Positions 4,768 to 58,261 of a stretch of DNA of 64,000 nucleotides are shown piece after piece. The stretch's first letter is position 1. Every line of letters begins with the position of its first letter. A program made the translations under genes and the position numbers. The notes beneath the pieces are model-generated. The model did no database searches, was not told where the DNA came from, and was given only the letters and a program-made list of their open reading frames with translations. The stretch lies in NCBI GenBank assembly GCA_965220965.1, contig OZ244852.1, positions 832,001 to 896,000 of the forward strand. The letters run 5' to 3'. Origin of the DNA: Candidatus Marinacidobacterium sp. (GTDB lineage Bacteria > Acidobacteriota > Vicinamibacteria > Marinacidobacterales > Marinacidobacteraceae).

Positions 4768-4768
4768 G

Positions 4769-5527: not shown

Positions 5528-6537
5528 GGGGAAGCCTCCACGAGGTCCGCGGCCGCGTAGCGGGCGCGGATGCCAGGGACGAGATAGCGGGAGAAGAGGG
5601 TCTCCCGGTCGTGCTCCGGGGCCCAGCCGAAGTCGCGGCGGGCGGCGCTGTCGTCGACCGCCCCGGGCCAGCTCGCGACGATCCGGTCCCGCGCCTCGTC
5701 GACCGAGGAGCGCACCACGACTCCGGGAAAGTCGCGGCGGACGCGGGCGATGACCTCGTCCGCCGAGAAACTGGGGCCGCCGATGTTGTACGCGTGGCGC
5801 CGAAGATCGGCCTTGTCGGCGTCGGCGAGCTGGAGAAAGCCCCGCACCGCGTCCGGCATGGAGCAGAACGGCAGCCGGGCGTCCGCCCGCACGAAGAAGG
5901 CGTAGGGCTCCCCCCGGGCCGCGGCGTGGAGCAGTTCGGGCGCCCAGTCGCTGGTTCCGCCCTGCGGCGCGGTGTCGCAGGAGATCAGCCCCGGGAACCG
6001 GATGGCCCGGAAGTCGAGGCCGGCGCACTCGCGCTCCATCGCCGCCCCGAGCCGCTCGATGTAGAGCTTCTGGTCGCCGTAGAGCGTGATGGGATCCAGA
6101 TGGTCTCCCTCGCCGATCGCGCCCGCCTCCGCCTTGGCGGCCCGGGACCCGAATCCGTAGACCGCGATGGAACTCGGGAACAGGAAGCGGACCGGCGCAG
6201 CCGGGGTCGCGTCGCGCGCGGCCATCTCGAGCAGATGGGCCGCCCCCTCCACGTTGACCCGGTGGGCCAGCGCCGGGACGGTCTCGGCGCGGGTGGAGAG
6301 GATGGCCGCGAGGTGAAACACCGTCCGCGCCCGGTAGCGCGCGCCGAACGCCGCCCAGAGCTCCCGGTCGAGGATGTCCCCCTGGAAGTGTTCCGTCGGG
6401 AGGGCCGCGGCTGCGGCCGGCGGGGGACGCAGGTCCACCGTCACGACGGCCTCGCCCCGGGCGCGCAGCGAGGTGACCAGCGCGGTTCCGATTTCCCCGG
6501 CGGAGCCGGTGACGAGCGTGACCGCGCGGCGGCTCAT
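5524..6537 (-). CDS. Extended SDR, L-threonine 3-dehydrogenase-like NAD-dependent epimerase/dehydratase
   Basis: 'VTGSAGEIG', 'HLAAILS', 'PSSIAVYG', YxxxK (YGDQK), 'FPGLIS...GGTSD'. Confidence 0.82.
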   Translation of the reverse strand: MSRRAVTLVTGSAGEIGTALVTSLRARGEAVVTVDLRPPPAAAAALPTEHFQGDILDRELWAAFGARYRARTVFHLAAILSTRAETVPALAHRVNVEGAAHLLEMAARDATPAAPVRFLFPSSIAVYGFGSRAAKAEAGAIGEGDHLDPITLYGDQKLYIERLGAAMERECAGLDFRAIRFPGLISCDTAPQGGTSDWAPELLHAAARGEPYAFFVRADARLPFCSMPDAVRGFLQLADADKADLRRHAYNIGGPSFSADEVIARVRRDFPGVVVRSSVDEARDRIVASWPGAVDDSAARRDFGWAPEHDRETLFSRYLVPGIRARYAAADLVEASP

Positions 6538-7274
6538 GCGCCGCTCTCCTCCGACCCGGGTCGCCCCGCTTCGAGCGTCCGGCGCAGGAACGCTCCGAGA
6601 GCCCGGATTTCCTCCTCGCAGACCTCGTGACCCATGGCGTAGGAGCGGAAGTCCACGTTCCAGCCGTTCGCGCGGAGGGCGTCGCGGGTGGTGGTTCCAC
6701 CTGCGAAGGGGACGATCTCGTCGTGGAGTCCGTGCGCCAGGAAAACCGGCGCCGCCACCGGTCCGGCGGGCGCCGCTTCTTCGGGGAACGGGAGGTAGGA
6801 CGAGAGCGCGGCGAGTCCGGCGATGGCGGGCGGGGACGCGGCGTCGGGACCACGGGCGGCGGCCGCCGCGAGCGCCACCGCGCCCCCCTGCGAGAAGCCG
6901 ACGAGCGCGACCCGCTCCGGGGGGATCCCACGCTCGGCCTCGGCCGCGAGAAGAGCCCGGACCCCGGAAACGACCGCTTCCAGGTGTTCCCGGTTGAGGC
7001 GCCGCGAGTCGGCGATCGACTCGATGTCATACCAGGCGCGCATCCACATCCCGCCGTTCAGGGTGACCGGCCGGACCGGCGCCTCGGGGAACACGAAGCG
7101 GACTCCCAGTGCGGCGGGGAGGCGCAGCGCGGGCAGCACCGGGACGAAGTCCTGGCCATCGGCCCCGAGTCCATGGAGCCAGAACACGGTCGAGCGGTGG
7201 GCGCCGACCGGAGGGATCTCGACGAGATTCCACGCCGGGAGCGCGGCCGGAGCGGAAGCGGCCGTGGAGGTCAC
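6534..7274 (-). CDS. Phospholipase/carboxylesterase (alpha/beta hydrolase)
   Basis: 'WLHGLGADG', 'GFSQGG' nucleophile, 'HG..DEIVP', 'MGHEV'. Confidence 0.92.
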   Translation of the reverse strand: MTSTAASAPAALPAWNLVEIPPVGAHRSTVFWLHGLGADGQDFVPVLPALRLPAALGVRFVFPEAPVRPVTLNGGMWMRAWYDIESIADSRRLNREHLEAVVSGVRALLAAEAERGIPPERVALVGFSQGGAVALAAAAARGPDAASPPAIAGLAALSSYLPFPEEAAPAGPVAAPVFLAHGLHDEIVPFAGGTTTRDALRANGWNVDFRSYAMGHEVCEEEIRALGAFLRRTLEAGRPGSEESGA

Positions 7275-9694: not shown

Positions 9695-11070
9695 CAGCGG
9701 AGTACGCGCCGCAGCACCGAGAGCTTGCCGCCGTACGGCGGGTAGCGGAGCGGGACGTCCAGCCACCTCGAGGCGGAGAACCAGGCGCGCTGCTGCGAGA
9801 GCCGGTCGAAGCCGTGAACCCCGTGGTAAGCGCCGAAGCCGCTCCGGCCCACGCCCCCGAAGGGAAGCGCGGGGTTGGCGCAGTGGACGACCGCGTCGTT
9901 CACCAGCACCGCCCCCGAGCGCACCGCCGCCGCCGCGGCCCGGACGACCCGCCGGCGGCGGGAGAAGACGTGGAGGACCAGCGGATCGGGATGCCGGGCG
10001 AGTTCGGCGAGCGCGTCGTCCAGCTTCCGGTACGGCAGCAGCGGCAGGATGGGTCCGAAGAGCTCCTCGCTGGCGGCCGGATGCCCCTCCGGCCAGGGGC
10101 CCGTCACGGTGGGGGCGAAGCGGAGCGTTTCCCGGTCCCGCTCTCCCCCGCGGAGCAGCGGCAGGCCGTCCAGCATGCCGGTCAGCCGGTCGAAGTGGGC
10201 GCGGTGGACGATCCGGCCGAAGTCGGGACTGCTGGCGGGGTCCTCCCCGTAGAACCCGTCGAGTGCGCGGAACAGTTCGCTCCGGAAGCGGTCGTATTGG
10301 CTCGCCGGGACGAGGACGAAGTCGGGCGCTACGCAGGTCTGCCCCGCGTTCAGGAATTTCCCCCACGCCAACCGGCGGGCGGCCAGGCGGATATTGGCCT
10401 TCTCATCGATCAGGGCCGGACATTTTCCTCCCAATTCGAGCGTAACCGGGGTCAAAGTCCGTCCGGCGGCCTCGGCGACGCGCGCTCCCGCGGCGCGGCT
10501 CCCGGTGAAGACGATGTGGTCGAAGGAACCGGAGGAGGCGAGCGCGGCCCCGGTCCGGGCGTCCCCGGAAACGACCTCGATGTGCCCCTCGGCCAGGACT
10601 CCCGGAACCCGCGCCGCGAGCAGCCCCGCGGTCGCCGGGGCGTGTTCCGAGGGCTTCAGCACCACCGTGTTGCCCGCCGCGATCGCCGCGACCGCCGGCC
10701 CAAGGCTCAACTGCAGGGGGTAGTTCCAGGGGGCGATCACCAGGACGACCCCCAGGGGCTCGGAGGTGATCCGGCTGCGCGCCGGCATCGTGGCCAGCGC
10801 GGTGGAGACCCGCTGCGGGCGCATCCAGCGGCGCAGGTTTCGGCGGGCCTGGCGGGCCTCCTGGACGACGAGACCGGTCTGCGCCGCCCACGCCTCGAAC
10901 GGCGGACACCCGAGATCCTCCGCCAGCGCCCCCTCCCACGCCGCGCGGTCCTCCACCAGGAGGCGCTCGAGCGCCCGGAGCGCGCCGCGACGGAACGCGA
11001 TCTCCCGCGGAGCGCCCGAAGACGCGAGACTCCGGGCCCGCTCGACGGCTCGCGTCAGCCCCTCGTCCAC
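9694..11070 (-). CDS. Aldehyde dehydrogenase (ALDH3-like)
   Basis: 'PWNYP','LELGGKCP','NAGQTCVAPD','EELFGP','PFGGVGRSG'. Confidence 0.93.
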   Translation of the reverse strand: MDEGLTRAVERARSLASSGAPREIAFRRGALRALERLLVEDRAAWEGALAEDLGCPPFEAWAAQTGLVVQEARQARRNLRRWMRPQRVSTALATMPARSRITSEPLGVVLVIAPWNYPLQLSLGPAVAAIAAGNTVVLKPSEHAPATAGLLAARVPGVLAEGHIEVVSGDARTGAALASSGSFDHIVFTGSRAAGARVAEAAGRTLTPVTLELGGKCPALIDEKANIRLAARRLAWGKFLNAGQTCVAPDFVLVPASQYDRFRSELFRALDGFYGEDPASSPDFGRIVHRAHFDRLTGMLDGLPLLRGGERDRETLRFAPTVTGPWPEGHPAASEELFGPILPLLPYRKLDDALAELARHPDPLVLHVFSRRRRVVRAAAAAVRSGAVLVNDAVVHCANPALPFGGVGRSGFGAYHGVHGFDRLSQQRAWFSASRWLDVPLRYPPYGGKLSVLRRVLR

Positions 11071-11115
11071 CTCGGCCGCGCAGTATAGGGGGCGCGGGTA
11101 GACTCGCGGGCCGCC

Positions 11116-11784
11116 GTGTCGTATCCGATTCCTGACTCAGCTCTCCCGTCGCCACGGGCCGCGCTTCCTGGCCGCGCCGAGGCGATGCCGGTTCCCGCGC
11201 GCCACTTCGTGCTGGACGCCCCGCTCACTCCGCCCTGGCCCGAGGGCGTTGCGGAGACCTTCTTCGGCATGGGGTGCTTCTGGGGCGCCGAGCGGCTGTT
11301 CTGGAAGATTCCCGGGGTCTACACCACGGCCGTCGGCTTCGCGGGCGGCGTCACTCCGAACCCCTCCTACCGCGAGGTGTGCACCGGCGCCACCGGGCAC
11401 GCCGAGATCGTGCGCGTCGTCTTTCGACCGGAGCAGGTCTCGTTCGTCGAGCTGTTGCGCACCTTCTGGGAGCAGCACGACCCGACGCAGGGGATGCGGC
11501 AGGGGAACGACATCGGGACGCAGTACCGCTCCGCCATCTATGCCGTGGGCGGGGAGCAGCTCCGGGAGGCGCGCGCCGCGCAGGGCGTCTACGCCGAGCG
11601 GCTCGGCGCCGCCGGGTTCGGCGCGATCACGACCGAGATCCGCGACGCGCCGGACTTCTTCTACGCCGAGGAATACCACCAGCAGTACCTCGCGAAGAAC
11701 CCGGCCGGATACTGCGGGATCGGGGGAACCGGGGTGTCCTGCCCGGCGCCTCCCCCGAACGGCGCGGGCGCCAACGGGGCGTGA
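11116..11784 (+). CDS. msrA: Peptide methionine sulfoxide reductase MsrA
   Basis: 'GCFWG', 'GHAE', '[11 protein letters not shown]', 'AEEYHQQYL'. Confidence 0.96.
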
Positions 11785-12197
11785 GCGCCTCGTCCGCGAG
11801 CCCCGCCGGGACGGGGGACGCTGACCCCCGCGACGAGGCTTCGGAGGCCGCCCTCAAGGCCCGGTCGCTCGGGCTCGGCGGCGTCCGGCGGCACATCTTC
11901 CTGTGCGCCGACGCCTCGAACCCCAAGTGTTGCCCTCCGGACCTCGCCGACCGGTCCTGGCGCCACCTGAAGGCGCGCCTCGACGAGCTGGGCCTGGCCT
12001 GCGGGCCCGCCGGCGGCCCCGTCGCCCGCACCAAGGCCAATTGTCTGCGGATCTGCGCCGAGGGGCCGATCGCGGTCGTCTACCCGGAGGGCGTCTGGTA
12101 CCGGGGCATGACCCCCGAGGCGCTCGACCGGGTCATCGAGAGCCACCTCGCCGGCGGCGCGCCGGTTCCCGAGCACCGCATCCCGACGCCCCGCTGA
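11781..12197 (+). CDS. Thioredoxin-like [2Fe-2S] ferredoxin
   Basis: 'HIFLC...KCC', '[22 protein letters not shown]'; GTG at 11781 overlaps the msrA stop. Confidence 0.85.
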
Positions 12198-12213
12198 GCC
12201 CCGGGGGCCGCCG

Positions 12214-15200
12214 CTACAGGACGCGGCGGAGGAGCGTCTCCGCCTCGGCGGGCGTGATGCCGCGCCGGGCGGCGTAGTCCTCGAGCTGGTCCCTCCCGAT
12301 CCTGCCGACCGAGAAGTAGCGGGCCTCGGGGCTCGCGAAGTAGAGCCCGGCGACCGACGCGGTCGGGGTGATCGCGAAGGACTCGGTGAGACGGACGCCG
12401 ATCGCCGCCTCGGCGTCGAGGGCGTCGAAGATCTCGCGCGCGATCCCGGGGTCCGGGGTCCCCGGGTAGCCGGGAGCGGGCCGGATCCCGCGGTAGCGCT
12501 CGCGGAGGAGGTCCTCGGGTTCCAGGTTTTCCTCTTCGCCGTACCCCAGCTCGCGGCGCGCCGTCTCGTGGAGCTTCTCGGCGAGCGCCTCGGCGAGCCG
12601 GTCGGCGAGCGACCGCAGGAGGAGCGCGTCGTAGTCGTCGCTGGCGCGTTCGGCGGCGGCCACCGCCGTCTCGAGGCCGAGGCCGGCGGTGACGGCGAAC
12701 ATGCCGACCACATCCGCCCCTCCGGCGGCCGGGGCGCCGGCGCCGCCGTCCCCGAGGAAGTCGGCGAGCGCCAGGCGGGGCCCCTTCCGGTCTTCCTGCT
12801 GGCGAAGCGTCGGGATCCGGAACCGGGGCGGGCCGGACGCCGAGCGCGGTTCCCACACCAGGATGTCGTCGCCCTCCCGCGCGGCCGGGAAGAACCCGTA
12901 GACCGCGGCGGCGCGCAGTTCGTCGCCGGTGGCGAGCGCCGCGGCCCGGGCGCGGGCGGCGGCGAGCAGCTCGCGGGCCGCCGATCCGGAGTCCGGGTGA
13001 TCCAGCAACGCCGGGAAGGTTCCCCGGAACTGCCAGGCGTGGAAGAACGGGGTCCAGTCGATGTAGGGGAGCAGCTCCCGGATCGCGATCTCGCGCAGGA
13101 CGCGCACCCCCAGGAACCGGGGCCGGACATCCGTGGCCCGGGGGAAGCGGGGCGCGCGCCGGCGGGCCTCGGCGAGCGACAGCAGCGGCGGCCGCCCCTC
13201 CTCGCCGCGCTCGCGCAGCCGGCTCTGGGACCGCCGCAGTTCGGCGACATAGTCCTCCCGCTCGTCGCCCAGCAGGGACCGCGCGACCCCGGACGCCAGC
13301 GAGGCGTCCCGGACGTGGACCACCGGGCCGGAGCGGGTGGGGGCGAGGCGCAGCGCGGTGTGGCGCGCCGAGGTCGTGGCGCCGCCGATGAGGAGCGGCC
13401 GGTGGTCGCCGCGGCGCTCCATCTCGACGGCGAACCGCTCCATCTCGGCGAGCGACGGGGTGATGAGTCCGGAGAGCCCGACGAGCGCCGCGCCCCCGGC
13501 GTTGGCGCGCTCGAGGATCCGGTCGGCGGGGACCATGACCCCGAGGTCGTCGACCTCGTAGCCGTTGCACGCCAGCACGATCCCCACGATGCTCTTCCCG
13601 ATGTCGTGAACATCCCCCTTCACGGTGGCGAGGACGATCCGGTCGCGGCGATCCGCGGCCTGCTCGTCGTTCCGCATGAAGGGTTCGAGCCGGGCGACCG
13701 CCCGCTTCATGACGCGGGCGCTCTTGACCACCTGGGGCAGGAACATCCGTCCATCGCCGAACCGCTCGCCCACGACCCGCATCCCGTCCATCAGCGGTCC
13801 CTCGATCACCCCGAGGGCCGACCCGATCCCGGCGAGCGCCTCGTCGGTGTCGGCCTCGATGAAGTCGGTGAAGCCCTGAACGACGGCGTGGGCGAGCCGC
13901 TCTTCGACCGGCAGCGCGCGCCAGGCGTCGTCCGCGCCGCGGCTGGAAGCCTGGGCGCGGGCCTCCGAGGCCACCTCGAGAAGCCGCTCCGACGCGTCCG
14001 GTCGGCGCGCCAGGACCACATCCTCCACCCGCTCGCGCAGGTCTTCGGGGATGTCGTCGTAGGCCGGGAGGCGGCCGGCGTTCACGATCCCCATATCGAG
14101 GCCGGCGGCGATGGCGTGGTGGAGGAACACCGCGTTCATCGCCTGTCGCACGCCCTCGTTGCCGCGGAAGGCGAACGAGAGATTCGAGACCCCCCCGGAG
14201 AGCAGCGATCCGGGACAGGCCTCGCGGATCCGGGGAAGCGCGTTCAGGAACTCGAGCGCATAGCGGTCGTGCTCCGCGATCCCGGTGGCGACCGCGAGGA
14301 CGTTCGGGTCGAAGGCGATGTCCCCCGGCGGAACCCCGATGCCGGTGAGGAGGCGGTAGGCGCGGGCGCAGATCGCGGTCTTGCGGTCGGCGTCGACCGC
14401 CTGGCCCTCCTCGTCGAACGCCATCACGATGAGCGCGGCGCCGTAGCGGCGCACCCGCCGCGCGGAGTCGAGGAAAGCCTCCTCCCCGTCCTTGAGCGAG
14501 AGCGAGTTCACCACGCCCTTGCCGGGAAGCTGGCGGAGCCCGGCCTCGATCACGTCGAGGTCGGAGCTGTCCACGACCACCGGCAGCCGGGCGATGTCCG
14601 GCTCCATCGCCACCAGCCGCAGGAACCGGCTCATGCAGCCGGCCGAGTCGAGGAGCGCCTCGTCCATGTTGACGTCGATGAGGTTCGCGCCCCCGGCCAC
14701 CTGATCCTGCGCCACGCCGATGGCGGCCTCGAAGCGCTCGCGCCGGATGAGCCGCGCGAACCGGCGCGAGCCGGTGACGTTCGTGCGTTCGCCGACGATG
14801 AGGAAGGCCCGCTCCGGCCGCACCAGTGGCTCGTTTCCGGCGAGGCGCAGTCCGGACCGGGCGGCGGGGACCTCGCGCGGCGCCGCGCCCCGGAGCGCCT
14901 TCCGGACGGCGTCGATGTGCTCCGGCGTCGTGCCGCAGCAGCCCCCGGTGAAGTTGAGCAGGCCCTGGCGCGCGAGGTCCCGGAGCGCCGACGCGGTGGC
15001 GACGGGGATCTCGTCGTAGCCGCCGAGTTCGTTCGGCAGTCCGGCGTTCGGGACGGCGCCCACCGGGACCGGGGCGTAGCGCGCCATGCGCTCCAGGATC
15101 GGACCCATCGCCTCCGCGCCGAGCGAGCAGTTCACCCCGGCCGCCGTGACGCCGGCGTGCTCGACGGACACCCAGAACGCCTCGGCGTCCTGCCCCGTCA

Positions 15201-48436: not shown

Positions 48437-51028
48437 ATGTCGCAGCTTCGCCGTTTCCGGTTCCGGGTCGCGCTCCTCGCCGTCGCTTCTCTGCTGGTCG
48501 CCGGGTTGGCCGGCGCGCAGGACGCGCCGCCGGCCATCCCGTCGATCGCGGACAAGACCTCCGGCATGACAGCGATCGACGGCTTCGTCCCGCTCCACTG
48601 GGACGAACGCACCGGGAAGATCTACGCCGAGCTGGGTCCGATGGAGGAGGAGTTCCTCTACCAGGTCTCGGCCGGTTCGGGCCTCGGCAGCAACCCGGTC
48701 GGTCTGGACCGCGGCCAGTTGAGCATGACGGCGGTGCTCCGTCCGATGCGGATCGGGCCGCGGGTGCTCCTCATGGAGCCCAACTACCGGTTCCGCGCGA
48801 TCAGCGACAACCCCGACGAGGTCCGCGCCGTCCGCGATGCGTTCGCGCCCTCGGTGCACTGGGGATTCCAGGTGGAGGCCGAGACCGGAGACCGGGTCCT
48901 GGTGGACATGACCGACTTCTTCCTGCGCGACACCCACGGCGCCATCGCCCGGCTGGCCCGCGCCCGGCAGGGGACCTACCGGCTCGACCGCGACCGCAGC
49001 GCCTTCTACCTGGAGAACACCAAGGGCTTCCCCGACAACACCGAGGTCGAGACCCTGCTCACGTTCACTTCGGACAATCCGGGACCGCTCGTCCAGGCGA
49101 CGGCCGCCAGCGGGGAAGCGGTGACGCTGCGCCAGCACCACTCGCTCGTCCGCCTTCCCGGCCCCGGCTTCGAAATGCGCATCGCCGACCCGAGGATCGG
49201 CGTGAACGGCCCGCAGTACATGGACTACGCGACCGCGATCGACGAGCCGATGACCGTCCGGCTCACCGCCCGGCACCGCCTCGAGAAGCGCGATCCCTCG
49301 GCGGAGCGTTCCGAGGTGGTCGAGCCGATCGTCTACTACCTCGACCGGGGCGCTCCCGAGCCGATCCGGAGCGCGCTCCTCGAGGGGGCCCGCTGGTGGA
49401 ACGAGGCGTTCGAGGCGGCCGGCTTCATCGACGGCTACCGGGTCGAGGTCCTTCCGGAAGGCGCCGACGCCCAGGACGTCCGCTACAACATGATCCACTG
49501 GACGCACCGGCGAACTCGCGGCTGGTCCTATGGCGGTTCGGTCCAGGACCCGCGCACCGGGGAGATCATCAAGGGGAACGTGAACCTCGGGAGCCTGCGG
49601 CTGCGGCAGGACCACCTCCTCGGGGTCGGCATGGTCGCGCCGTATGTCGGGGGCTCGGGCGCCGCGCCGGCCGGCCACGACCACGGGATGCACGGCCTTC
49701 CGCCGGACCCCGGCGGCCCGCACTCCTGCGGCCTCTCCGCGACGCCGGGATTCGGGTATCTGGCGCAGATCAGCCCGGACGCCGACCCGGTGGAGCTGGC
49801 GCTGGCCCGCGTGCGGCAGCTCTCCGCCCATGAGGTGGGCCACACGCTGGGATTCCCGCACAACTACATGTCGTCCACCTACGACGGCCGCGCCAGTGTC
49901 ATGGACTATCCGGCGCCGCTGGCGACGCTGGAAGACGACGGGACGGTCTCGCTGAGCGACGCCTACGGCGTCGGCGTGGGCTCCTACGACATCCTCTCGG
50001 TCCGCTGGGCCTACGCCCACGTCCCGCCCGCCGAGACTGCGGCCACGCTCGACCGGATCATGCAGGAAGGGCTCATGGCGGAGACCCGGTTCATGGCCCA
50101 CACCGACAACTACATCGGGGCGGGCGCGCACCCGCTGGCCTCCGTCTGGGACAACGGCGGCGATCTGGTCCGCCACCTCGGCCGCGAGATCGACATCCGG
50201 CAGGCGGGTCTGGACGCCTTCGGCGAGCGCGTGATCCGGGTGGGCGAACCGATGTCACGGCTCGAGCCGGTTCTGATGCCGCTCTATCTCCACCACCGCT
50301 TCCAGATGAAGGCGGCGATGAACACCATCGGCGGGCAGGAGTACTACTACGCGGTCCGGGGCGACGGGCAACGCCCGGTGAACGCCGTCCCCGGCGACCG
50401 CCAGCGCGAAGCCCTTGACACCGTCCTGAGGACGCTCGACACGAGCTTCCTGGCCCTTCCGAGGCGCATCGTCGAGATGATCCCCCCGCCTGCCTACCGG
50501 GAGCGGGGAACGGAGACCTTCGACGGGCACACCGGCGTCGTCTTCGACCCGCTGGCGGCGGCGGACACTTCCGCCGACTACACCGTCGAGCTGCTGCTCC
50601 ACCCCGAGCGGATGGCGCGGCTGGTGAACAACCACGCGCTCGACCCGGACCAGCCCGGACTGAGCGAGGTCCTCGACCGGCTCACAGAGGCCACCTGGGG
50701 AGAGGACGAGCCGGATGACACCTACCACCGCGCCGTCCAGGACGCCGCCGAGCGCAGCGTGCTGAACGGGATGATGCGGGAAGCGCTGAACCCGGACAAC
50801 CCGGCGCGCGTTCGCGCCGTCATCGAGGACCGGCTCGTCGCCCTCGGAGAGAGCCTGGGCGAGATGGACGACCGCAGCCCGCACGAGGAGCTGGCGTGGA
50901 TGGACATCGACCGCTTCCTCGACCGGGACGACAGTCTCGACCCCAACGCCCGCCGTCCGGCCCTCCCGCCGGGCTCCCCCATCGGCGGCGCCTCGGCGTC
51001 AGGGGAGCGCATCCACCCGGGCCACTGA
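48437..51028 (+). CDS. Exported zinc metalloprotease (DUF5117/DUF4953, EcxA-like metzincin)
   Basis: Signal peptide; 'PIVYYLD','WNEAFE','DPRTGEI','HEVGHTLGFPHN','SVMDY'. Confidence 0.9.
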   Translation: MSQLRRFRFRVALLAVASLLVAGLAGAQDAPPAIPSIADKTSGMTAIDGFVPLHWDERTGKIYAELGPMEEEFLYQVSAGSGLGSNPVGLDRGQLSMTAVLRPMRIGPRVLLMEPNYRFRAISDNPDEVRAVRDAFAPSVHWGFQVEAETGDRVLVDMTDFFLRDTHGAIARLARARQGTYRLDRDRSAFYLENTKGFPDNTEVETLLTFTSDNPGPLVQATAASGEAVTLRQHHSLVRLPGPGFEMRIADPRIGVNGPQYMDYATAIDEPMTVRLTARHRLEKRDPSAERSEVVEPIVYYLDRGAPEPIRSALLEGARWWNEAFEAAGFIDGYRVEVLPEGADAQDVRYNMIHWTHRRTRGWSYGGSVQDPRTGEIIKGNVNLGSLRLRQDHLLGVGMVAPYVGGSGAAPAGHDHGMHGLPPDPGGPHSCGLSATPGFGYLAQISPDADPVELALARVRQLSAHEVGHTLGFPHNYMSSTYDGRASVMDYPAPLATLEDDGTVSLSDAYGVGVGSYDILSVRWAYAHVPPAETAATLDRIMQEGLMAETRFMAHTDNYIGAGAHPLASVWDNGGDLVRHLGREIDIRQAGLDAFGERVIRVGEPMSRLEPVLMPLYLHHRFQMKAAMNTIGGQEYYYAVRGDGQRPVNAVPGDRQREALDTVLRTLDTSFLALPRRIVEMIPPPAYRERGTETFDGHTGVVFDPLAAADTSADYTVELLLHPERMARLVNNHALDPDQPGLSEVLDRLTEATWGEDEPDDTYHRAVQDAAERSVLNGMMREALNPDNPARVRAVIEDRLVALGESLGEMDDRSPHEELAWMDIDRFLDRDDSLDPNARRPALPPGSPIGGASASGERIHPGH

Positions 51029-51038
51029 GCGGCTCACG

Positions 51039-51070
51039 GGACCTCCCGGAGCCAAGACTCCGGGAGTTCC
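51039..51070. terminator. Hairpin between convergent protease and helicase genes
   Basis: GGAcCTCCCGGAG-ccaaga-CTCCGGGAGtTCC: 9-bp perfect stem plus 3 bp after one mismatch. Confidence 0.45.
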
Positions 51071-51101
51071 GCTCCGCGGTCAGAGGTTCAGGTCCGCCCA
51101 C

Positions 51102-54100
51102 CTATCCGCGGGATAGCGCCTGTTCGATCTCATTCAGGGCGAATTTGCGGTTCAGGTGTGGGTGCAGCCACTGATTCCGATAACTCCTGAGGCACCCATA
51201 GCAGCTCGCGTCGCAACCGCAGTCGCCGCGCACACGCGTTCGCGCAAGTTCCAGCACGAGGCGGAAACTCTCCCTGTTGGTGAGTTGGCCTACGAGTCCA
51301 GCGCCGCCAGGAACATCGTCGTAGAGAACCACTCCGTCCACGGTAAGGGTGACGTTCAGGTCGCGTTCGGGGACGGCAACGGCATCGGCAGCTCCATGGA
51401 GAAGCGCGTACCCGAGCGAATACCGAACCCACTTCTGGCGCCCCGGCAGCTCAACCTTGACCACATCTGTGACAAGCTCGTGACCCAACGCGTAGCTGGA
51501 GAAGGTACCTCGGCAGGGACGCCCGTCCGCTGTCTTGTGGCCGCGCGCCCGTGGGTTCGCGTCGTGTAGTCCGCAGTCCTCGCACAGCAAGAAGTTGCGC
51601 TGACCCTGACCCTCACAGAGAACCACTAACCTGCCTGGCAGAGCCTCTGCGACATCGAGCCCGAAGAGTCTCTTCTTGTGGGCCTTGCGCGCCCCAGCGG
51701 AATACCCCTGGAAGAACGGCTTCGTCGTATACTGACGGCGCGGTCGGCGCACCGGAGGGCGTGGGTCGGTCTGGAGGTCGGTAGTAAAGCCCCAACGTGG
51801 GACGAGATAGCGACCTGAGTACTGTGCACCTTCCTCCTTCTCCGCGTCATTTGAGGATTCGAAGGCGCCCTCCTCGTTCCAGAAGTACCAGCGGACGGTG
51901 GGAGCCTGCCCCTCGACCCTCCGAATACCCACAGACTTCCACTCCAGCTTGTCGGCGACTACGCTGCTCCCAGGCGCGTATTCGGCAAGCGCGAGTGAGA
52001 GATCACGGTCGAGCTCTATGTTCTGGCCATTCTTGGTCGCTCCCGTTTGCAGCTCGACCACATCCACCGGAAATCCGTATTTTGGGATGATGGCGTGTCG
52101 CGCCAGAAACGAAATCGCCATCTCCCGCTCCATCGCGTTCAATCGGTCCTCCAACCGATAGCGCCTCCTTCGTTCAGTGCGAGTGGCATTCAGATCCGCC
52201 AGGATCCGTTCGATCTGAAGATACTCGGCGCACCGATCGGCGACGGCGCGGGCGAGTCTGCTCTCGCTCCCGGTAAGCCGTCGAACCCATTTCTGTCCAT
52301 CGACCCCGACGCTCTCCCGCAGCGTCGCCGGAACGACGTCGTGCAGGACTCGCGGCAGCGCGTCGTCGTTGCGGCAGAACTCGCCGAAAGCATCACACAC
52401 ATCGGGGTGTCGCCAGTCCTCGCCAATGAAATCCTTGACTCGTCCGGCGCGAATACGATGCGCCGGCTGCCGGAAGAAGTGTGATAGGGCGACCGCGGTC
52501 ATGTGCCTTTGGACGATCTGAGGATTTGTCAGGCGAAGGATCGGCGGTCGGACCCGACCAGAGATCATCTCCTGCTGATGTCGGAAGTAGTGGAGGTCAT
52601 GGGAGTTGCGGCGACAGTAGGTGACGGCAAGACCTGCCTTCCCCCGCCGGCCGGCGCGGCCGACTCGTTGTGTGTAGTTGAACGGTTCGGGTGGCACGTT
52701 ACGAAGAAACGTCAGGCGAAGATCACCGAGGTCGACACCGACTTCGAACGTAGTGGACGAACTGAGCAGGTGCACCCGATCCCGCTGAAAATCGCGCTGG
52801 ACGCTGCGCGCTTCCTCCGGAGTCAACTGCGCTGTGTGTTCGGCCGTTCTGAAGTCTGCTGGAAGGTCCGATGCGAGGTAGAGGCGTCGGTAGTGGTTGT
52901 CCTCGTGCGTGCTCTTCACCCGACCGAGTCGTCCCGTGCAGCGAGGACGGGGACAGAGGCCGCGAAGGGCTATGGCAGTGACCCGGTCGCACCTACGACA
53001 CCGCCAGAGGTCGGATGACGAGGCCGGACGGACACGGAGCCACTCGGCGCGCAGCCGGAAGCCGTTAGTCCTGCGATCGATGGACAGGAGAGCGGCGCTG
53101 GACGAGCGTCGCGACTGAGCGACGAGGTGATCCCAGACACGAACCATCACATCTTGGGCGGCGAACACGGGGTCCGTCTCACCATTGACTAGTTTGGGAA
53201 GATAGTCGCGAACAAGGCCGCCCTGCGGTGAGCCCCACTGGCGCAGATGACGGCGTCCGTGCGGACGATCTTGGCTGAAGGCGAGTTGGGGCCTCTCTGG
53301 CTTTATGACGGACCACGTGGGCAGATCCGGATCGGTGGAGGGCAGCTCCACCGCGTCGTTTCTGAGGAACTCGGCGAGCAGCAATTGCAGGAGCGCACTG
53401 GCCTCCGCCGGGTTCAACCGCCAGGGAGTCTCCTGGAACACTGGCGGGAGATTCATGCCCGGAGGCAGTGCGACATGCCAGCGGCAGAGGCCGACCCCCG
53501 CCAGCGACAGCCGCGTGTCATCGGTCACGGCTTCACGAAGCACTGCCGCATAGGCATCTCTGTAGCGCTGTGCTCCAGTCTCCGACGGTGCGTGAACCCC
53601 CAGCTCCGACCGGACTCTCTCGAGTCTCTGCGCGAGATCGGCCACGGACAACTCGCAGTGACTCGCGCCACGCGGTGAAGCCTTCTGTCGAAGGGCGCGG
53701 AGCAACAGGTTGCGCGTGAGCAGAGTCCGGTAGGAGTCCTCCGCATACCAAGCAAAGAAAGCTGCGTCCTGTCGGCTATCCGCGAAGGCAAGGATCTTCT
53801 TCTCATCCTCGGGAAGAAACCGGTGCATGGCCGTAGCCAGAACGGCGTTGGGGGCGTCGGCGCCGTGGACGATCGCCTGAACGGGATCGCCAACGCCACC
53901 TCGGCTGTAGCTACAGACCGCGCACCTCTTCAGTTGATCCCGGTACTCCGGTTGCTGTCGGTTCTCACTCCGTTCAACACGGATCGCCGCTCCACAGCGG
54001 CACGTCAGCTCGTCGCTCAGCGCACCGCAGATACGGCAGAGCAGAAGGGAACCCTCCTCGGCGGGCAGGTAGAACTCGACCCCGAACTCCTCGCGCGACG

Positions 54101-55358
54101 GATCCCGGCAGGCTTCCAGGAGGAACCCTCCGGTACGGCGGCCAACGTAGTAGTGCTGGCCACACTCGCGGCACAGCGCTATCTCGATATAGGCCGACTT
54201 GCCAGCCTCATCCCCGACATGACCGCGGTTCAGCGTGACCCGGTCCTGCCCATGATGGTGATGCAGGAAAGCGCCTTCAAGCGCCCTTGCAAACACGTGG
54301 TAGCGACGTACGTGCGCACTCGTCCTGGCCCGTGTAGTGTCCTCCTGACCGAAGATCACGCACTCGGGAGCGAAGGGCTCACCGAACAGGGCACTCGCAA
54401 ATCGAGCCACGGATGCCCGAGCATCGGCATCGTGTGTCGACGCGATGGTGGCGCTCGTGGCGACGCATCGAAATGACCCCGACCGGCCGCCTCGCCGCAG
54501 TCGATTCGTGAGACGGCGCAGCAGCATCGCCATCTCGATCCCCCTTGCACCGCGATACATGTGCGCCTCGTCGAGGACCAGAAACCGCCAGTGAGCGGCC
54601 CGGCCGGCATCGAACAAAGGGCTGTCATCCGGCCGGAGGAGCAGATGCTCGAGCATCGAGTAGTTGGTAAACAGAAGGTGCGGCGGCCGCGCCCGCATAT
54701 CCTCGCGGAATACTGTTTCGCCGGGGAGCGCGCTCTCAGCGCGCGCGCGACCGTGCCGGCGTCGGTCTCTGATGTTCTCCGGTGTCTGCCCGATGTACTG
54801 TCCAAAGGAGAATCGGAAGTCGGAGCGGTCCGCAGCGAGGTTGCCGCAGAGCGCGCCGATCCGCTCGCGCTGGTCGTTGACCAGGGCGTTCATGGGATAG
54901 AGAACGAGGGCGCGGACGCCGGGGTCGCCCAGCGTGCCGGCCAGGTGTTCTCCGTAGAGGGAGAACAGAATGGGATAAAGGAAGCACTCGGTCTTCCCGC
55001 TGGCTGTGCCGCTCGCCACGGCGATGTTGGACTGTGCGAACGCGCTCTGTCGAATGGCCTCCTCCTGATGTGCATAGAGCGCGCCGGAGTGCAGAGCAGG
55101 TAAGAGCGCGCCTGCCCGGCCAGGAAACGCCGCCTCGGCGAGAGCGGGAGCCTCGACCCCGAGCCGAAAATACCGGCCGTATTCCGGAACAGGTTCGGTG
55201 ACCAGTGTGCCCTCGGCTTCGAGCGCGGTGCGGAAGGACTCGCGTAGTTGGGGATCTCGGAAATGGAAAGATGTTGTGAGGTACCTGAGGTAGCTCGAAC
55301 GCAGACGTCGGACCCACCCGGCGATCTCCGCGTCGGAATGGGGTTGGGTGACGCTCAT
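51102..55358 (-). CDS. Large SF2 DEAH helicase with Zn-binding motifs and C-terminal DUF1998 (DruE/MrfA-like)
   Basis: 'LYAHQEEAI','SGTASGKT','YPMNALVNDQ','TNYSMLE','LDEAH','TSAT','FADSRQDAA','TFEVGVD','QRVGRAGRR','YDDVPGGAG','CGCDASCYGCL'. Confidence 0.93.
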   Translation of the reverse strand: MSVTQPHSDAEIAGWVRRLRSSYLRYLTTSFHFRDPQLRESFRTALEAEGTLVTEPVPEYGRYFRLGVEAPALAEAAFPGRAGALLPALHSGALYAHQEEAIRQSAFAQSNIAVASGTASGKTECFLYPILFSLYGEHLAGTLGDPGVRALVLYPMNALVNDQRERIGALCGNLAADRSDFRFSFGQYIGQTPENIRDRRRHGRARAESALPGETVFREDMRARPPHLLFTNYSMLEHLLLRPDDSPLFDAGRAAHWRFLVLDEAHMYRGARGIEMAMLLRRLTNRLRRGGRSGSFRCVATSATIASTHDADARASVARFASALFGEPFAPECVIFGQEDTTRARTSAHVRRYHVFARALEGAFLHHHHGQDRVTLNRGHVGDEAGKSAYIEIALCRECGQHYYVGRRTGGFLLEACRDPSREEFGVEFYLPAEEGSLLLCRICGALSDELTCRCGAAIRVERSENRQQPEYRDQLKRCAVCSYSRGGVGDPVQAIVHGADAPNAVLATAMHRFLPEDEKKILAFADSRQDAAFFAWYAEDSYRTLLTRNLLLRALRQKASPRGASHCELSVADLAQRLERVRSELGVHAPSETGAQRYRDAYAAVLREAVTDDTRLSLAGVGLCRWHVALPPGMNLPPVFQETPWRLNPAEASALLQLLLAEFLRNDAVELPSTDPDLPTWSVIKPERPQLAFSQDRPHGRRHLRQWGSPQGGLVRDYLPKLVNGETDPVFAAQDVMVRVWDHLVAQSRRSSSAALLSIDRRTNGFRLRAEWLRVRPASSSDLWRCRRCDRVTAIALRGLCPRPRCTGRLGRVKSTHEDNHYRRLYLASDLPADFRTAEHTAQLTPEEARSVQRDFQRDRVHLLSSSTTFEVGVDLGDLRLTFLRNVPPEPFNYTQRVGRAGRRGKAGLAVTYCRRNSHDLHYFRHQQEMISGRVRPPILRLTNPQIVQRHMTAVALSHFFRQPAHRIRAGRVKDFIGEDWRHPDVCDAFGEFCRNDDALPRVLHDVVPATLRESVGVDGQKWVRRLTGSESRLARAVADRCAEYLQIERILADLNATRTERRRRYRLEDRLNAMEREMAISFLARHAIIPKYGFPVDVVELQTGATKNGQNIELDRDLSLALAEYAPGSSVVADKLEWKSVGIRRVEGQAPTVRWYFWNEEGAFESSNDAEKEEGAQYSGRYLVPRWGFTTDLQTDPRPPVRRPRRQYTTKPFFQGYSAGARKAHKKRLFGLDVAEALPGRLVVLCEGQGQRNFLLCEDCGLHDANPRARGHKTADGRPCRGTFSSYALGHELVTDVVKVELPGRQKWVRYSLGYALLHGAADAVAVPERDLNVTLTVDGVVLYDDVPGGAGLVGQLTNRESFRLVLELARTRVRGDCGCDASCYGCLRSYRNQWLHPHLNRKFALNEIEQALSRG

Positions 55359-55407
55359 CGATCCGTGGCGCGGAGCATCCGATCGCAGACCCGGGTCCAG
55401 GCGTGCC

Positions 55408-57957
55408 TCATCGGGACGTGAGGGCCCGAAGGGCCGCGACGGCGGCGTTGACGACGTGGGCGCGGGACCCGATGGAACGAACGCGAATGCTTCGGATGCC
55501 TGCGGTCTCCAAGAGCGCCCGTAGACGGCCACGGGCGTGAACGCCCGAGTCGGCGCTCGCGGGCCGCAGCAGAAGGCGCGAGGAGCCATAGGCGCCAACC
55601 GTGGCGCGCGGAATGGTGTTGTGGGAGATCGGGACGACGAACAGGGCGCGTCGAGCCCGATGCTCGGCCCGGGCACATGCTCTTCGAGGTGTGCTCTCGC
55701 ATGCGCGTCCGACGCCGAGTCGGCCGTTGCGATCACCCACGGCTACGAGCGCCACGAATCGTCGGTGTCGAGGCGCTACGGCCCGCCGTGAGAGCGGTCG
55801 GAGCGTGAGAAGGCGAGGGGTCAGCGCCGGTGGAGATTGGGAGGGGGACGGGTGGGAAGGAAGTTCGAGGAGGAGTGCCGGCAGAGTGTGCGAGCCAGCC
55901 CGTAGCCTGAGTTCCCCGGACGCTGGCTCGGATTGGACAGAGAGGAGGTCGGCGAAAGAGCCCAGCGGAATCGAGACGGCCGTCTTGTGCGGAAACTGGG
56001 CAGCAAGGCCACTGTCGGCCTCGTGGCGGTAGCGTCCGGGCTGACCGTCAGCGAAGGCCGCCTCGATCGTCCGCTCCGTGGGTGGCGCCAGAACCTCCAG
56101 TGCGGCGTGTCGCCGATAGGTTCGGCGAAGCGGTCGTCGCTCCCAGCAGGAGTCACCCGCCATCCGCCACCAGAGGCGCGGCAGATCCAGGACAATCGGG
56201 AGGCTGTCGTCGCCGTCGCGCAGTTCAAGGCGCACCCGATCGGTCTTGGGGGAGTACGGCACCCGCGCCTCTCGAGTGCGAACGGCCACATCGCGCGTGC
56301 CGGTGTTGAGCTGCAGCGACCGACCATGGCTGTCTTCGATCGTGATGTAGTCCTCGTCGCGGTCGTCTGGCAAGAGGAGTCGGAGACCCTCGAATGGCAG
56401 TCCGTTCACCAGAATCCTCTTGAGGCCTGGCCAGTAGCGGAACGTGGTCGTGTCGGCGAGATGAGTGTGGCCGCTCTGATACGTGCGAAGAAAGAACTCG
56501 CCGCGCCTGTTCCCAATGCGCACGGGTGTTGGCTGCTCTGTGAGTTCGAAGTTCTTGCCCTTCCACGGTTCGTCGGCTGGCCCCGCGTGGCGCCCGGCGG
56601 CGCGGGGGTGCTCCTCTCCGACGCGAGCCCAGACTATCCCGGGCGCGGGCCAGAGTCTGGGAGGATCCCCGACGAAGAGCTCATCGTCATCGCTGTCGAG
56701 GACCGTGGTCCCCTCGAGGCGCGCACTCTTGTCGGAGCCGACGGGATAGTCCCCAAGTGTGCCCAGGGAGTCGGCGTCGTCCGAGGGCCGGATTTCGTAG
56801 TGATGACAATGTAGGCTCGGATCCGTGCAGAGCTCCGACGCTCGGAACTTCTGTTGACTGCGCTTCCAATTCGGCGGCGCAAAGGCGAGGAAACGGCCAC
56901 GACGGAGGGTCCGTGAGAGCTCCCCGCGCAGGTCGGGCTCGGTTCCGGAGAGCCTGAAGAAGAGCGGTCTCTGGTTGTCGAACAGCGGAATGTCAAGCGG
57001 ATCTCCGTTCGATGGGAAAAGACGCACGGGCTGCCGCAACCGGGAGAGAAACAGGCGACCGTCCACCAGGTCCATTTCCTCGTTGCCCTGGGTCGCCCTC
57101 TCTATGTTGCGCTCGCGCGGAATCTCGATCACGACGCGCCATCGATTCCTGTGGCGCGTGCACTTCACGCGTACCGGAGGGAGACGCGGCCCGGTATCGC
57201 CGGTGGGGTTGGGGCGGCGCCGGGGACCGATGCGCCGAGGTTCCCCTGGCTGGCGCGGAAGTTCGTAGTCGAGCCGTGCGCGTGAGCGCCTGATTTCTGT
57301 CGCGTGTAGGGTGACTTGTCCAGGGGATTCCCGCCGCTCGTCGGCAGACTCCGCGCCGTCGTTCGACATTGGATCGGGAGGCGAAGAGTGGTCTCGATCT
57401 TCGTCCGCGCGGGCCGTGGACATACTGGCGTCGACGGCCAACCCGGCGCCTCTGGCCGGTCCTGGAGGGGGATGTTGATCGTGATGGCTGTGCGTGCTGT
57501 CCGGAGGACGTCGGAGTGCTTCGCTGGCGTCTGGCTCCGGAGAGTCGGGGGTGCTCTCCGGGAAGTGCTCATGGGCCGGCTCGTCGGTGTCCCCCTCGAC
57601 CAGGGGTGGCTCCTGGACTGAAGAGGCCACTGTACGGACGATGTCTGATGGTGCGTCAGGCGTCGCGCGTTCCAGATCGGGTGGCCGATTGGTCGATTTG
57701 GGCGGCGTCTCGAGGGTCGGCGAGTGGGGGCCGTCAGACACGGAGAGCTGCGGTGCGACGTGCGGCGCCGACGAGGTCTCGGCTTCGGATGAGGAAGGCG
57801 CCGGTGTCTTCTGGTCATGTGGGATCGTCCGGTGCGAGGCGCCCTTCAACGCGCCGTGGGTCCGAACCGCCGGCTCCCGCTCCACGGGAGGTCGCGGCTT
57901 GATCCGCACCCACGCCAACAGGCGCTGAAGCGGCGCGATGAGCCACCGGAAGGCCAT
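55408..57957 (-). CDS. 849-aa helicase-associated protein: amphipathic N-terminus, low-complexity linker, beta-rich unknown core, C-terminal ribosomal protein uS5-like domain
   Basis: AAGGAG RBS 13 nt before ATG; residues about 714-849 contain 'FVALVAVGDRNGRLGVG','TIP...G..GSSRLLLRPAS..SGV.A.G.LRALLETAGI...RSIGS'. Confidence 0.8.
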   Translation of the reverse strand: MAFRWLIAPLQRLLAWVRIKPRPPVEREPAVRTHGALKGASHRTIPHDQKTPAPSSSEAETSSAPHVAPQLSVSDGPHSPTLETPPKSTNRPPDLERATPDAPSDIVRTVASSVQEPPLVEGDTDEPAHEHFPESTPDSPEPDASEALRRPPDSTHSHHDQHPPPGPARGAGLAVDASMSTARADEDRDHSSPPDPMSNDGAESADERRESPGQVTLHATEIRRSRARLDYELPRQPGEPRRIGPRRRPNPTGDTGPRLPPVRVKCTRHRNRWRVVIEIPRERNIERATQGNEEMDLVDGRLFLSRLRQPVRLFPSNGDPLDIPLFDNQRPLFFRLSGTEPDLRGELSRTLRRGRFLAFAPPNWKRSQQKFRASELCTDPSLHCHHYEIRPSDDADSLGTLGDYPVGSDKSARLEGTTVLDSDDDELFVGDPPRLWPAPGIVWARVGEEHPRAAGRHAGPADEPWKGKNFELTEQPTPVRIGNRRGEFFLRTYQSGHTHLADTTTFRYWPGLKRILVNGLPFEGLRLLLPDDRDEDYITIEDSHGRSLQLNTGTRDVAVRTREARVPYSPKTDRVRLELRDGDDSLPIVLDLPRLWWRMAGDSCWERRPLRRTYRRHAALEVLAPPTERTIEAAFADGQPGRYRHEADSGLAAQFPHKTAVSIPLGSFADLLSVQSEPASGELRLRAGSHTLPALLLELPSHPSPSQSPPALTPRLLTLRPLSRRAVAPRHRRFVALVAVGDRNGRLGVGRACESTPRRACARAEHRARRALFVVPISHNTIPRATVGAYGSSRLLLRPASADSGVHARGRLRALLETAGIRSIRVRSIGSRAHVVNAAVAALRALTSR

Positions 57958-58261
57958 GCTCAGCCGAGGTCTCCTTGGGTGTGAGTTGGACCCAGCGCCG
58001 CGCGCGCTCCGGCGGCCGAGGCTCTCTTGAAGGGTGTGATCGGTGCGCGCGCCTGTCGTGCGAGATGCGAACCAGCCTCGGCGAAGAGGGACACGGCCCG
58101 ATTATGCGGCAGTCCCTCGTCTGCCGGTCGGCGGTCTGGGCTCCGGCCGGTCAGCCTGATGGACGCACGCGTCCGATCTCCGCCAGCCGCTCAGAGAAGG
58201 CGAAAACTTCGGACCCGACGCCTGCTCCAAATCGGCGCTCACCGCGCGGGGGCGGGCACAC

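Follow-up and report, generated by a model that had tools for sequence, protein, structure and literature searches.

The stretch of DNA analyzed here (the window) comprises 64,000 nucleotides of Candidatus Marinacidobacterium sp. (assembly GCA_965220965.1, contig OZ244852.1, positions 832,001 to 896,000) and carries on its minus strand a pair of genes laid out like the defense system Druantia type III. The upstream gene (55408..57957, minus strand; 849 codons plus TGA) occupies the position of druH and encodes a protein referred to below as the partner. It is followed, after a 49-nt spacer read directly from the sequence (55359..55407, minus strand), by the ATG (55358-55356; MSVTQPH...) of a compact DruE-like helicase of the YprA family (51102..55358, minus strand; 1418 aa), whose frame was checked and whose start was picked by alignment with DruE of relatives. 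The partner ends in a complete ribosomal protein uS5, and this fusion is one instance of a family-wide fusing of modules derived from ribosomal proteins and NusA to the partners of compact DruE helicases.

Identity and remodeling of the uS5 tail

The last 136 codons of the 849-aa open reading frame (ORF), together with its TGA stop at 55408-55410, occupy positions 55408-55818, and an earlier note on this DNA had claimed that they encode a full uS5 domain. Residues 714-849 are indeed a complete two-domain uS5. The Pfam model Ribosomal_S5 (PF00333) scored 36.5 bits on the whole protein and 40.2 bits on the tail alone (residues 717-776), and Ribosomal_S5_C (PF03719) scored 41.8 and 45.2 bits (residues 788-847), respectively, against gathering cut-offs of 27.1 and 21.5 bits. 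The N-terminal domain, similar to double-stranded RNA-binding domains, spans residues 715-776 (55630..55815, minus strand), and the C-terminal one, which belongs to the S5 domain 2 type, spans residues 788-847 (55417..55596, minus strand). Considerably lower values than the equivalog cut-off of 164 bits were obtained with the bacterial rpsE model TIGR01021 (84-89 bits; for the tail 89 bits, E 2.4e-25). A phmmer comparison of the tail with PDB sequences matched, at E <= 1e-3, 153 different chains of uS5, with 7nhn_f at the top (E 5.4e-22, tail residues 2-131). The structure predicted by AlphaFold2 from 93 family sequences reached a predicted local distance difference test score (pLDDT) of about 90 for residues 734-848, and the top 50 PDB matches of this model in Foldseek were all uS5, led by 1fjg_E, the uS5 of T. 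thermophilus (E 3e-8, target template-modeling score [TM] 0.72), with a target TM of up to 0.74 within this group. As regards gene context, the tail is the C-terminus of an 849-aa ORF lying beside a helicase gene, and not a stand-alone gene.

Remodeling of the tail was read by aligning it to rpsE sequences from the window's bacterial family (seven genes). The KGGK loop of rpsE appears as VAPR, and GLGKAREVPAA as GRACESTPRRA, so that the GKAxEV segment is gone and ACESTP stands in its place; in uS5, the KGGK/R loop and the GKAxEV segment are rRNA contacts. The tail contains no lysine, 28 arginines and five acidic residues (net charge +23, isoelectric point 12), and is thus about twice as basic as the same region of the host rpsE product (net +12). 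The hydrophobic core and the glycine motifs are retained. The altered loop, the lost segment, the lack of lysine in an Arg-rich tail and the retained core and glycines had been described beforehand by the earlier note, which gave the loop as KGGR, the form in the host being KGGK.

The frame of 849 codons was open throughout, according to both the ORF list and the translation of 55408..57957 on the minus strand, and its Trp/Leu-rich N-terminal start could be aligned with the starts of relatives. The junction (55200-56400) was covered, with zero differences or gaps, by contigs of two public sequencing runs from two studies, both holders being assembled contigs, one of which may be the source of the window itself. 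No RNA dataset was present among the listed sequencing runs holding the window sequence. These identical contigs, and the occurrence of the same core-uS5 ORF upstream of DruE in five other genomes of the family, indicated that the fusion is not a chimera.

The partner family and its swapped C-terminal modules

Upstream of the tail, the partner begins with an N-terminal helix (residues 2-17; 57907..57954, minus strand; assigned by DSSP on the AlphaFold2 model, pLDDT ~70), in which the W...L pattern of the family consensus is found. This is followed by a disordered region rich in Pro, Ser, Asp and Glu (residues 18-235; 57253..57906, minus strand; pLDDT <50 for residues 19-234) that ends in the basic motif PRRIGPRRRP, corresponding to PRxIGGRR in the family consensus; the net charge of residues 1-235 is -12. 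The central part is an all-beta core of tandem immunoglobulin (Ig)-like sandwich domains (residues 236-704; 55846..57252, minus strand), for which a model of the core only gave pLDDT 88 and a predicted TM score of 0.79. A flexible linker (residues 705-731; 55765..55845, minus strand; pLDDT <50) extends into the start of the uS5 homology, and residues 705-733 include seven Arg and no acidic residue.

The core was modeled alone because Foldseek searches with the full model gave uS5 chains only. In the PDB it matched multi-Ig proteins (LILRB3, titin, ICAM-5 and complement MG domains) at E 6.5e-6 or weaker and with low TM, and among viral models it retrieved phage BIG2 or tail proteins, which are generic multi-Ig matches; DruH was absent from the Foldseek matches of the core in both collections. 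The core had no match in Pfam, NCBIfam or PADLOC, a search of the ESM Atlas yielded no usable match for it, and a word-indexed protein search with residues 250-849 recovered the query alone.

An exhaustive HMMER search of 1.84 billion representative proteins, clustered at 50% identity, was carried out with residues 215-713 as the core query. It revealed 342 representative homologues at E <= 1e-3, 66 of them at E <= 1e-30. The members share a common plan that consists of a Trp/Leu-rich N-terminal helix, a long Pro/Ser/acidic disordered region (~220 residues), the PRxIGGRR motif, the all-beta core (~470 residues), a linker and a C-terminal domain. The last of these varies. Tails of the best 150 of the 342 homologues were typed by means of hidden Markov models built from the tails themselves, the types being confirmed by Pfam. 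Most of these proteins (113) carried an eL13-like tail (a GxGFSxxEL...DxRRRS module), whereas uS5 was found in five, KH domains of the NusA type (KH1-KH2) in three, bS6 in two and bS18 in one; the remaining 26 had other tails or none, some of them being fragments. The earlier note had left it between a uS5 that is constant among homologues of the core and one that is swapped for other domains; constancy did not hold, since the module is eL13-like in most members and NusA-KH, bS6 or bS18 elsewhere. Evolution has swapped the C-terminal module of this partner family freely.

Scores supporting these assignments were 46-68 bits for Ribosomal_S5_C in the proteins P0005, P0010, P0020 and P0079 (the N-terminal S5 domain being matched as well in P0020 and P0079), 81-88 bits for Ribosomal_S6 in the bS6-type tails, 49.6 bits for Ribosomal_S18 in the bS18-type tail, and 57-68 bits for KH_5 in the KH-type tails, which also aligned with KH1-KH2 of the NusA encoded by the window genome (82-94 bits). 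The C-terminal S5 domain is kept in every uS5-type tail of the family. Ribosomal_L13e was matched in 19 of 60 scanned members (best E 1e-10), and the best match of the eL13-like tail among eL13 chains of the PDB was 9e6q_AH (1.9e-7). To our knowledge, the ribosomes of most of the host bacteria lack eL13, and therefore the commonest tail cannot be the copy of a host ribosomal protein. Further tails were TrcR-like or MacB_PCD, and six of ten "other" proteins had no Pfam match. All identified tails except MacB_PCD, the TrcR-like one included, are nucleic-acid-binding domains.

In a FastTree phylogeny of 149 cores, four uS5-tailed and three KH-tailed proteins formed a clade with support 100, the window protein lying inside it on a long branch; a word-indexed search with the alignment of these seven proteins added two further proteins. 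The fifth uS5 protein (P0079) fell inside the eL13-type clade, so that the uS5 label needs at least three changes on the core tree.

Two observations concern proteins related to these modules. P0155, from a Longimicrobiales metagenome-assembled genome (MAG; L060, ORF 6594-11888), joins the Ig-like core, in 1572 aa, to a C-terminal SNF2-type helicase (SNF2 N-terminal and Helicase_C domains), an enzyme in the tail position; a DruE-like gene still comes after it. In the window genome, the NusA match (L107, G000:C1:1591169-1595170, minus strand; an open frame of 764 codons) scored 232 bits against the TIGR01953 cut-off of 253, and in this NusA an Arg/Pro-rich insertion apparently separates KH1 from KH2, while the C-terminus apparently runs on into a long basic extension.

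Conservation of the gene pair

A pattern scan over one genome per species, with peptide patterns taken from eL13-type members and therefore under-sampling other tail types, located 69 partner loci, all of them in MAGs and distributed among many phyla. The taxa included Latescibacterota, Chloroflexota, Acidobacteriota, Rhodothermales and Poribacteria, as well as Proteobacteria, Binatia, Gemmatimonadota, Spirochaetia and Nitrospinales. A DruE-like ORF was present on the same strand, at or just after the stop of the partner, in 63 of the 69 loci (phmmer E <= 1e-100), and was split over two or three frames in eight of these 63. One locus held DruE fragments only, and the five loci without DruE corresponded to two short contigs, two truncated partners and one intact partner. 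An eL13-like tail was found in 53 of the 69 loci and uS5 in none, a distribution that mirrors the origin of the scan patterns. The DruE proteins of the uS5-tailed relatives and of the eL13-tailed relative of the window organism (see below) scored 1396-1663 bits against the DruE of the window.

One acidobacterial locus of the scan (L006, G069:C8:450000-469000) has a second, divergent DruE-like helicase with an MZB domain (1666 aa) at 0.7 kb from the pair, the coordinates being 1498-6498 (-) and 7243-12995 (+); the partner of the pair is split in the overlapping frames 7243-8025 and 7979-9463, which may reflect a frameshift or a sequencing error. The titles of loci L007-L075 include Poribacteria, Poriferihabitaceae, Latescibacterota and SAR202, and several isolates are labelled in one and the same style, so that the partner family may be biased to marine hosts and their associates.

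uS5 tails and rpsE genes in the bacterial family of the window

The genome that contains the window (3.25 Mb, two contigs) showed a second match to the rpsE model (TIGR01021, 215 bits), located between genes with Ribosomal_L18p and L15 (Ribosomal_L27A) domains. This is the housekeeping rpsE; its product shares 34% amino acid identity with the tail of the window protein. When 55 genomes of the same order were searched, with a stricter first look that makes the counts a floor, the partner was found in at least seven of the 28 genomes of the window's family (window genome included), each of which also has a separate rpsE. DruE lay directly downstream in all six family relatives. Five of these six relatives had a uS5 tail, and the sixth (G428; partner in L093, G428:C1:2599500-2611000, at 1773-3977 [+]) an eL13-like one, which means that both tail types circulate among close relatives.

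Similarity between each uS5 tail and the rpsE of its own genome varied widely, as judged over a region aligned to 139 codons of rpsE, in which the synonymous distances (dS) are rough. The tails of G414 and G416 were both 92% identical in amino acids to their own rpsE product (nonsynonymous distance [dN] 0.048 and dS 0.37 for G414; 0.054 and 1.10 for G416), that of G415 was 58% identical (0.293 and 1.10), and low values were obtained for the window genome, G000 (34%; 0.814 and 1.43), G433 (35%; 0.709 and 1.33) and G426 (29%; 0.875 and 2.21). In addition, a metagenomic member of the family (P0154) has a tail that is 88% identical, over 169 residues, to the rpsE product of the window organism. 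At synonymous sites the nearest sequence to the G414 tail was its own rpsE (dS 0.37, the next one being 0.61), and both carry the AHQVVG variant; for the G416 tail, its own rpsE was not the closest. Native-like tails retain KGGK in the loop and have the length of a full uS5. For the pair G433 and G426, dN/dS was 0.38 between the tails vs. 0.018 between the rpsE genes.

Few relationships were resolved by a protein tree built on the S5 region (30 rows, 139 columns), which had 2 starred and 19 open branches. A phylogeny together with the host rpsE had been proposed beforehand; in this tree, native-like tails fell inside the unresolved rpsE group of the window's family, apart from the outgroup families (91/75), whereas the diverged tails could not be placed on this tree, including that of the window, whose branch was very long at 6.48 changes per column. 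Given this lack of resolution, single vs. multiple origin was not argued from the S5 tree, and pairwise dS was used instead. The window tail originated from rpsE. In our reading, uS5 was copied from the rpsE of the window's bacterial family, either more than once or with later refreshment by gene conversion, and a tail freed from conversion diverges quickly. The proposal of the earlier note that uS5 was captured and re-purposed is supported by the genuine rpsE elsewhere in the genome, by the sister fusions 92% identical to their own rpsE, and by the divergence of the window tail to 34% with loss of the KGGK loop.

The helicase and the genomic island

The earlier description of the helicase as defense-type agreed with the PADLOC models, among which DruE1 gave E 1.3e-143 and DruE3 7e-135. 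Pfam domains in this protein were DEAD, Helicase_C and MZB (MrfA Zn-binding); no nuclease domain, of the phospholipase D (PLD) type or any other, was found by Pfam in its 1418 residues, and the protein ends just after MZB.

Both genes form an island (51000..58000), delimited by GC content, by GC at third codon positions (GC3) and by absence in genomes of the same genus. GC was 0.61-0.69 inside the island vs. 0.70-0.73 in the flanks, and GC3 was 0.75 in the partner gene and 0.72 in druE, as compared to 0.93 in rpsE and to 0.86 and 0.93 in the genes for a TonB-dependent receptor and a Met-zincin, respectively, that flank the island. The pair was not found in either of the two same-genus genomes searched. 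One of these, G419, did not offer a clean empty site, since unrelated genes fill the 9.9 kb that separate the homologues of the flanks. The two-gene island thus looks horizontally acquired.

The G419 interval (L115, G419:C1:1335000-1345200) contains a gene of the RimK-type ATP-grasp kind at 500-1582 (+), as well as genes for a spermine-synthase/TPR protein, a TonB-dependent receptor and a CitMHS transporter. RimK modifies ribosomal protein bS6 in E. coli; the presence of a RimK-type gene at this place is probably a coincidence.

Discussion

The results give the identities of both genes, the architecture of the partner, the fold of its tail, a broad partner family, its adjacency to DruE and the swapping of C-terminal modules. 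The function of the pair can be proposed on this basis with graded confidence.

We tentatively favor, with somewhat less than even confidence, the reading that the tail was exapted for the binding of nucleic acid and presents nucleic acid derived from infection to DruE. In a two-gene system gained by horizontal transfer and similar to Druantia type III, the partner would be the sensor or adaptor subunit, and its tail would replace the C-terminal domain of canonical DruH, the one that binds single-stranded DNA (ssDNA). Beside the Ig-like scaffold the tail would hold nucleic acid produced in the infection, either RNA or a single-stranded or structured form, and DruE would thereby be recruited, or given licence, to unwind nucleic acid of the phage. 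The E. coli report places ssDNA binding of DruH at the interface between Ig5 and the C-terminal domain (10.64898/2026.05.12.722862), and in P. aeruginosa the C-terminal domain is described as contacting the DruE Stalk. Since the C-terminal end of DruH contacts ssDNA and DruE, by analogy the tail would occupy the end of a tandem-Ig partner at which nucleic acid and helicase are contacted. Nucleic-acid binding is the simplest property common to the unrelated tail folds; this shared property, together with a uS5 fold that was kept while becoming about twice as basic, favors the reading of the tail as a binding module. Binding of nucleic acid by the tail, its link to the activation of DruE and the anti-phage function of the pair are what we infer from these data. 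For the three roles offered by the earlier note (an RNA-binding module, a ribosome tether, or an integrated decoy sensing phage proteins that target the 30S subunit), capture and re-purposing thus stood, and as to the role itself the evidence leans to nucleic-acid binding, the two others keeping part of the probability.

Several observations weigh against this reading. The role in nucleic-acid binding rests on analogy and charge, no sequence homology of the core to DruH was detected, and the partner of the window lacks the N-terminal helical (exonuclease) domain of canonical DruH. The C-terminal domain of the latter, which touches the DruE Stalk in P. aeruginosa, is reported to be alpha-helical. 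The near-native tails of G414, G416 and P0154 are 88-93% identical to rpsE products, with dN/dS vs. rpsE of 0.13 and 0.05 for the first two, a conservation that exceeds the need of a generic binding module unless the captures are recent or gene conversion recopies rpsE. Moreover, tail types come from physically interacting pairs, uS5 with NusA KH1 and bS6 with bS18, and this pairing, together with the model of the uS5 tail with NusA described below, hints at specific docking over generic binding. Finally, the MacB_PCD tail is not a nucleic-acid binder.

Other explanations account for part of these facts. The tail might be an integrated bait that mimics host uS5, bS6, bS18 or NusA and is hit by phage proteins, upon which the Ig-like sensor would change and DruE be released or activated, so that it would be to bacteria what integrated decoys are to the NLR (nucleotide-binding leucine-rich repeat) receptors of plants. 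We consider this unlikely, in spite of several facts that it explains well: the tails are whole copies of parts of the host machinery and not fragments, several of them are near-native and match the bacterial family of their carrier (G414, G416, P0154), the three or more changes of the uS5 label on the core tree can be read as repeated acquisition, tails evolve fast after capture (G433-G426), and one report, which describes positive selection in the Ig-like domains of DruH, proposes this protein as the phage sensor (10.64898/2026.05.12.724681). However, the majority tail is eL13-like, and there is no bacterial eL13 to mimic; the window tail, at 34% identity to host uS5 and with its conserved surface loops lost, would be a poor mimic; and near-native copies can arise by gene conversion from rpsE without selection. 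No paper combining ribosomal protein, integrated decoy and phage defense was found, and we know of no phage effector of uS5. About equally improbable, to our judgment, is that the tail docks the sensor-helicase pair on the transcription-translation machinery, where phage transcripts or transcribed DNA would be surveyed in place: uS5 and NusA-KH tails would each bind the natural partner of the other at the interface between RNA polymerase (RNAP) and ribosome, and native-like uS5, bS6 and bS18 tails might assemble into 30S subunits. It is in agreement with this view that uS5 and NusA KH1-KH2 tails alternate within one clade of seven proteins, that native-like tails keep the loop and length of uS5, and that NusA KH1 is reported to touch S2 and S5 of the ribosome in coupled complexes of E. 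coli (10.1101/2020.03.01.972380). A complex prediction for tail residues 714-849 with S1-KH1-KH2 of the organism's own NusA lends weak support, with a score of 0.60 vs. 0.01 for the best of three controls, agreement between runs in at least 98% of contacts and a pLDDT of the partner of at least 86. Among solved complexes 51 of 78 reached the mark used, and among mismatched pairs two of 108; at 0.60 or under it was reached by only five of those 78 solved complexes and by all four passing mismatches (of 180). According to the prediction tool, passes at this level are wrong in most cases in which the guess had not been a likely one from the start; complexes of NusA with uS5 have already been solved, and the score may be a memory of those structures, which would indicate likeness only. 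Further against docking, assembly of the window tail into 30S is unlikely because it lacks the rRNA loop, eL13-like tails have no site on the bacterial ribosome, known Druantia III is described as acting on DNA forks and 3' ssDNA, and bS6 and bS18 lie far from NusA, on the 30S platform.

Much less probable than either is that the tail has no ligand of its own and serves as a DruE-binding adaptor, like the helical C-terminal domain of P. aeruginosa DruH. It stands at the same protein end as that domain and its coding sequence abuts druE, but unrelated folds (eL13-like, uS5, bS6, bS18, KH, TrcR-like) interchange while DruE is conserved (1396-1663 bits), which disfavors a specific protein interface between tail and DruE. 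That the fusion is an artefact (an error of frame or a chimera of the assembly) or the functionless, decaying remnant of a pseudogenized second rpsE is scarcely credible: the very long branch of the tail (6.48), its odd composition and the lack of a close relative that would give a dN/dS for the window copy could be explained in this way, but the 849 codons are open, the junction contigs of two runs are identical, the same architecture occurs in five other genomes and in further metagenomic proteins, and the hydrophobic core and glycine motifs are kept in a fold predicted with pLDDT ~90. A broader proposal, possible though rather doubtful, is that the partner family as a whole is a bacterial receptor of the integrated-bait or docking type that repeatedly captures entire parts of the gene-expression apparatus of the cell (uS5, bS6, bS18 and NusA KH1-KH2) and carries them on a flexible tether next to an Ig-like sensor. 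If so, a DNA helicase defense would be wired to the state of the coupling interface between ribosome and RNAP, and when a phage seizes translation or NusA this would be sensed through the captured copy, which would trigger DruE; near-native uS5 tails, conserved as is the rpsE of the cell, would be working mimics, and the hyper-basic tail of the window a later specialization.

Druantia is widespread, and type III has been explained biochemically just recently, in preprints of 2025-2026; the present data indicate that compact DruE helicases are also paired with a second large partner family (342 representatives) in many phyla. Nature has, in effect, run a domain-swap experiment at the C-terminus of this partner, which has repeatedly acquired entire ribosomal proteins and KH domains of NusA, some of them recently or conservatively enough to keep 92% identity to the rpsE of their own genome, and the series from native-like to remodeled tails within one bacterial family makes roles as binder, bait or dock directly testable. 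The case shows the recruitment of housekeeping genes into immunity. We know of no described anti-phage system that has ribosomal proteins as fused modules.

Comparison with known systems

The absence of a previous description of the fusion, stated by the earlier note to the best of its knowledge, agrees with the literature searched. The terms "ribosom" and "L13e" are absent from the main texts, supplements lying outside the scope, of the reports on Druantia III (among them 10.64898/2026.05.12.722862, 10.64898/2026.05.12.724681 and 10.64898/2026.05.13.724758), of the M. smegmatis study (PMC13316683) and of the YprA survey (10.1101/2025.09.15.676423), and "ribosomal protein" and "L13e" are absent from the preprint on component modularity (10.1101/2025.09.30.679545). 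A literature search gave nothing relevant on L13e in defense, on S5 with DUF1998 or on a ribosomal protein as an integrated decoy in phage defense. For the partner family itself no description was found in the literature, outside whose searched scope were the supplements of the YprA survey (10.1101/2025.09.15.676423), which possibly list III-B-like partners.

Compared with ribosomal proteins, the window tail has both Pfam domains of uS5, in the same order and over the full length of the fold, and differs from rpsE products by its fusion, its low TIGR01021 score, the loss of KGGK and GKAxEV, the absence of Lys and the presence of a separate genuine rpsE in the genome. The majority tail of the family shares with archaeal and eukaryotic eL13 the conserved motif GxGFSxxEL...D.RRRS; it differs in being a stretch of only ~55 residues, found in bacteria and always at the C-terminus of the partner. 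Plant NLR immune receptors carry integrated decoy domains, which, like the tails, are copies of host proteins fused to an immune sensor, variable among lineages and repeatedly acquired. Unlike in those receptors, the majority tail (eL13-like) corresponds to no host protein, and the likeness is one of logic only.

The closest counterpart is Druantia type III, which likewise consists of two genes, the partner first and a DruE/YprA helicase with MZB (DUF1998) second. Neither the window protein nor 60 family members matched any PADLOC model, DruH included (E <= 0.01; MSMEG_1253 was not compared), and no PDB sequence matched the core in a copy of the PDB that lacked the DruH structures 29DR and 29DP; as homology between core and DruH was not detected, the likeness to DruH is architectural only. 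In DruH of E. coli, a globular domain at the N-terminus is described as being followed by six Ig-like subdomains and then by the C-terminal domain (10.64898/2026.05.12.722862). Like DruH of E. coli and P. aeruginosa, the window partner has a central string of domains, predicted to be Ig-like, and a distinct C-terminal domain, whereas the helical (exonuclease) N-terminal domain of canonical DruH is replaced by a disordered N-terminus and the helical C-terminal domain by the ribosomal-protein-like or NusA-like modules of the window family. The window DruE also lacks the two C-terminal PLD nuclease domains that characterize DruE in Druantia III-A. In this it resembles, by Pfam, subtype III-B, for which a compact DruE without PLD domains is described (10.64898/2026.05.13.724758). 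By analogy, then, the window pair fits the III-B outline of a compact DruE with one upstream Ig-repeat partner.

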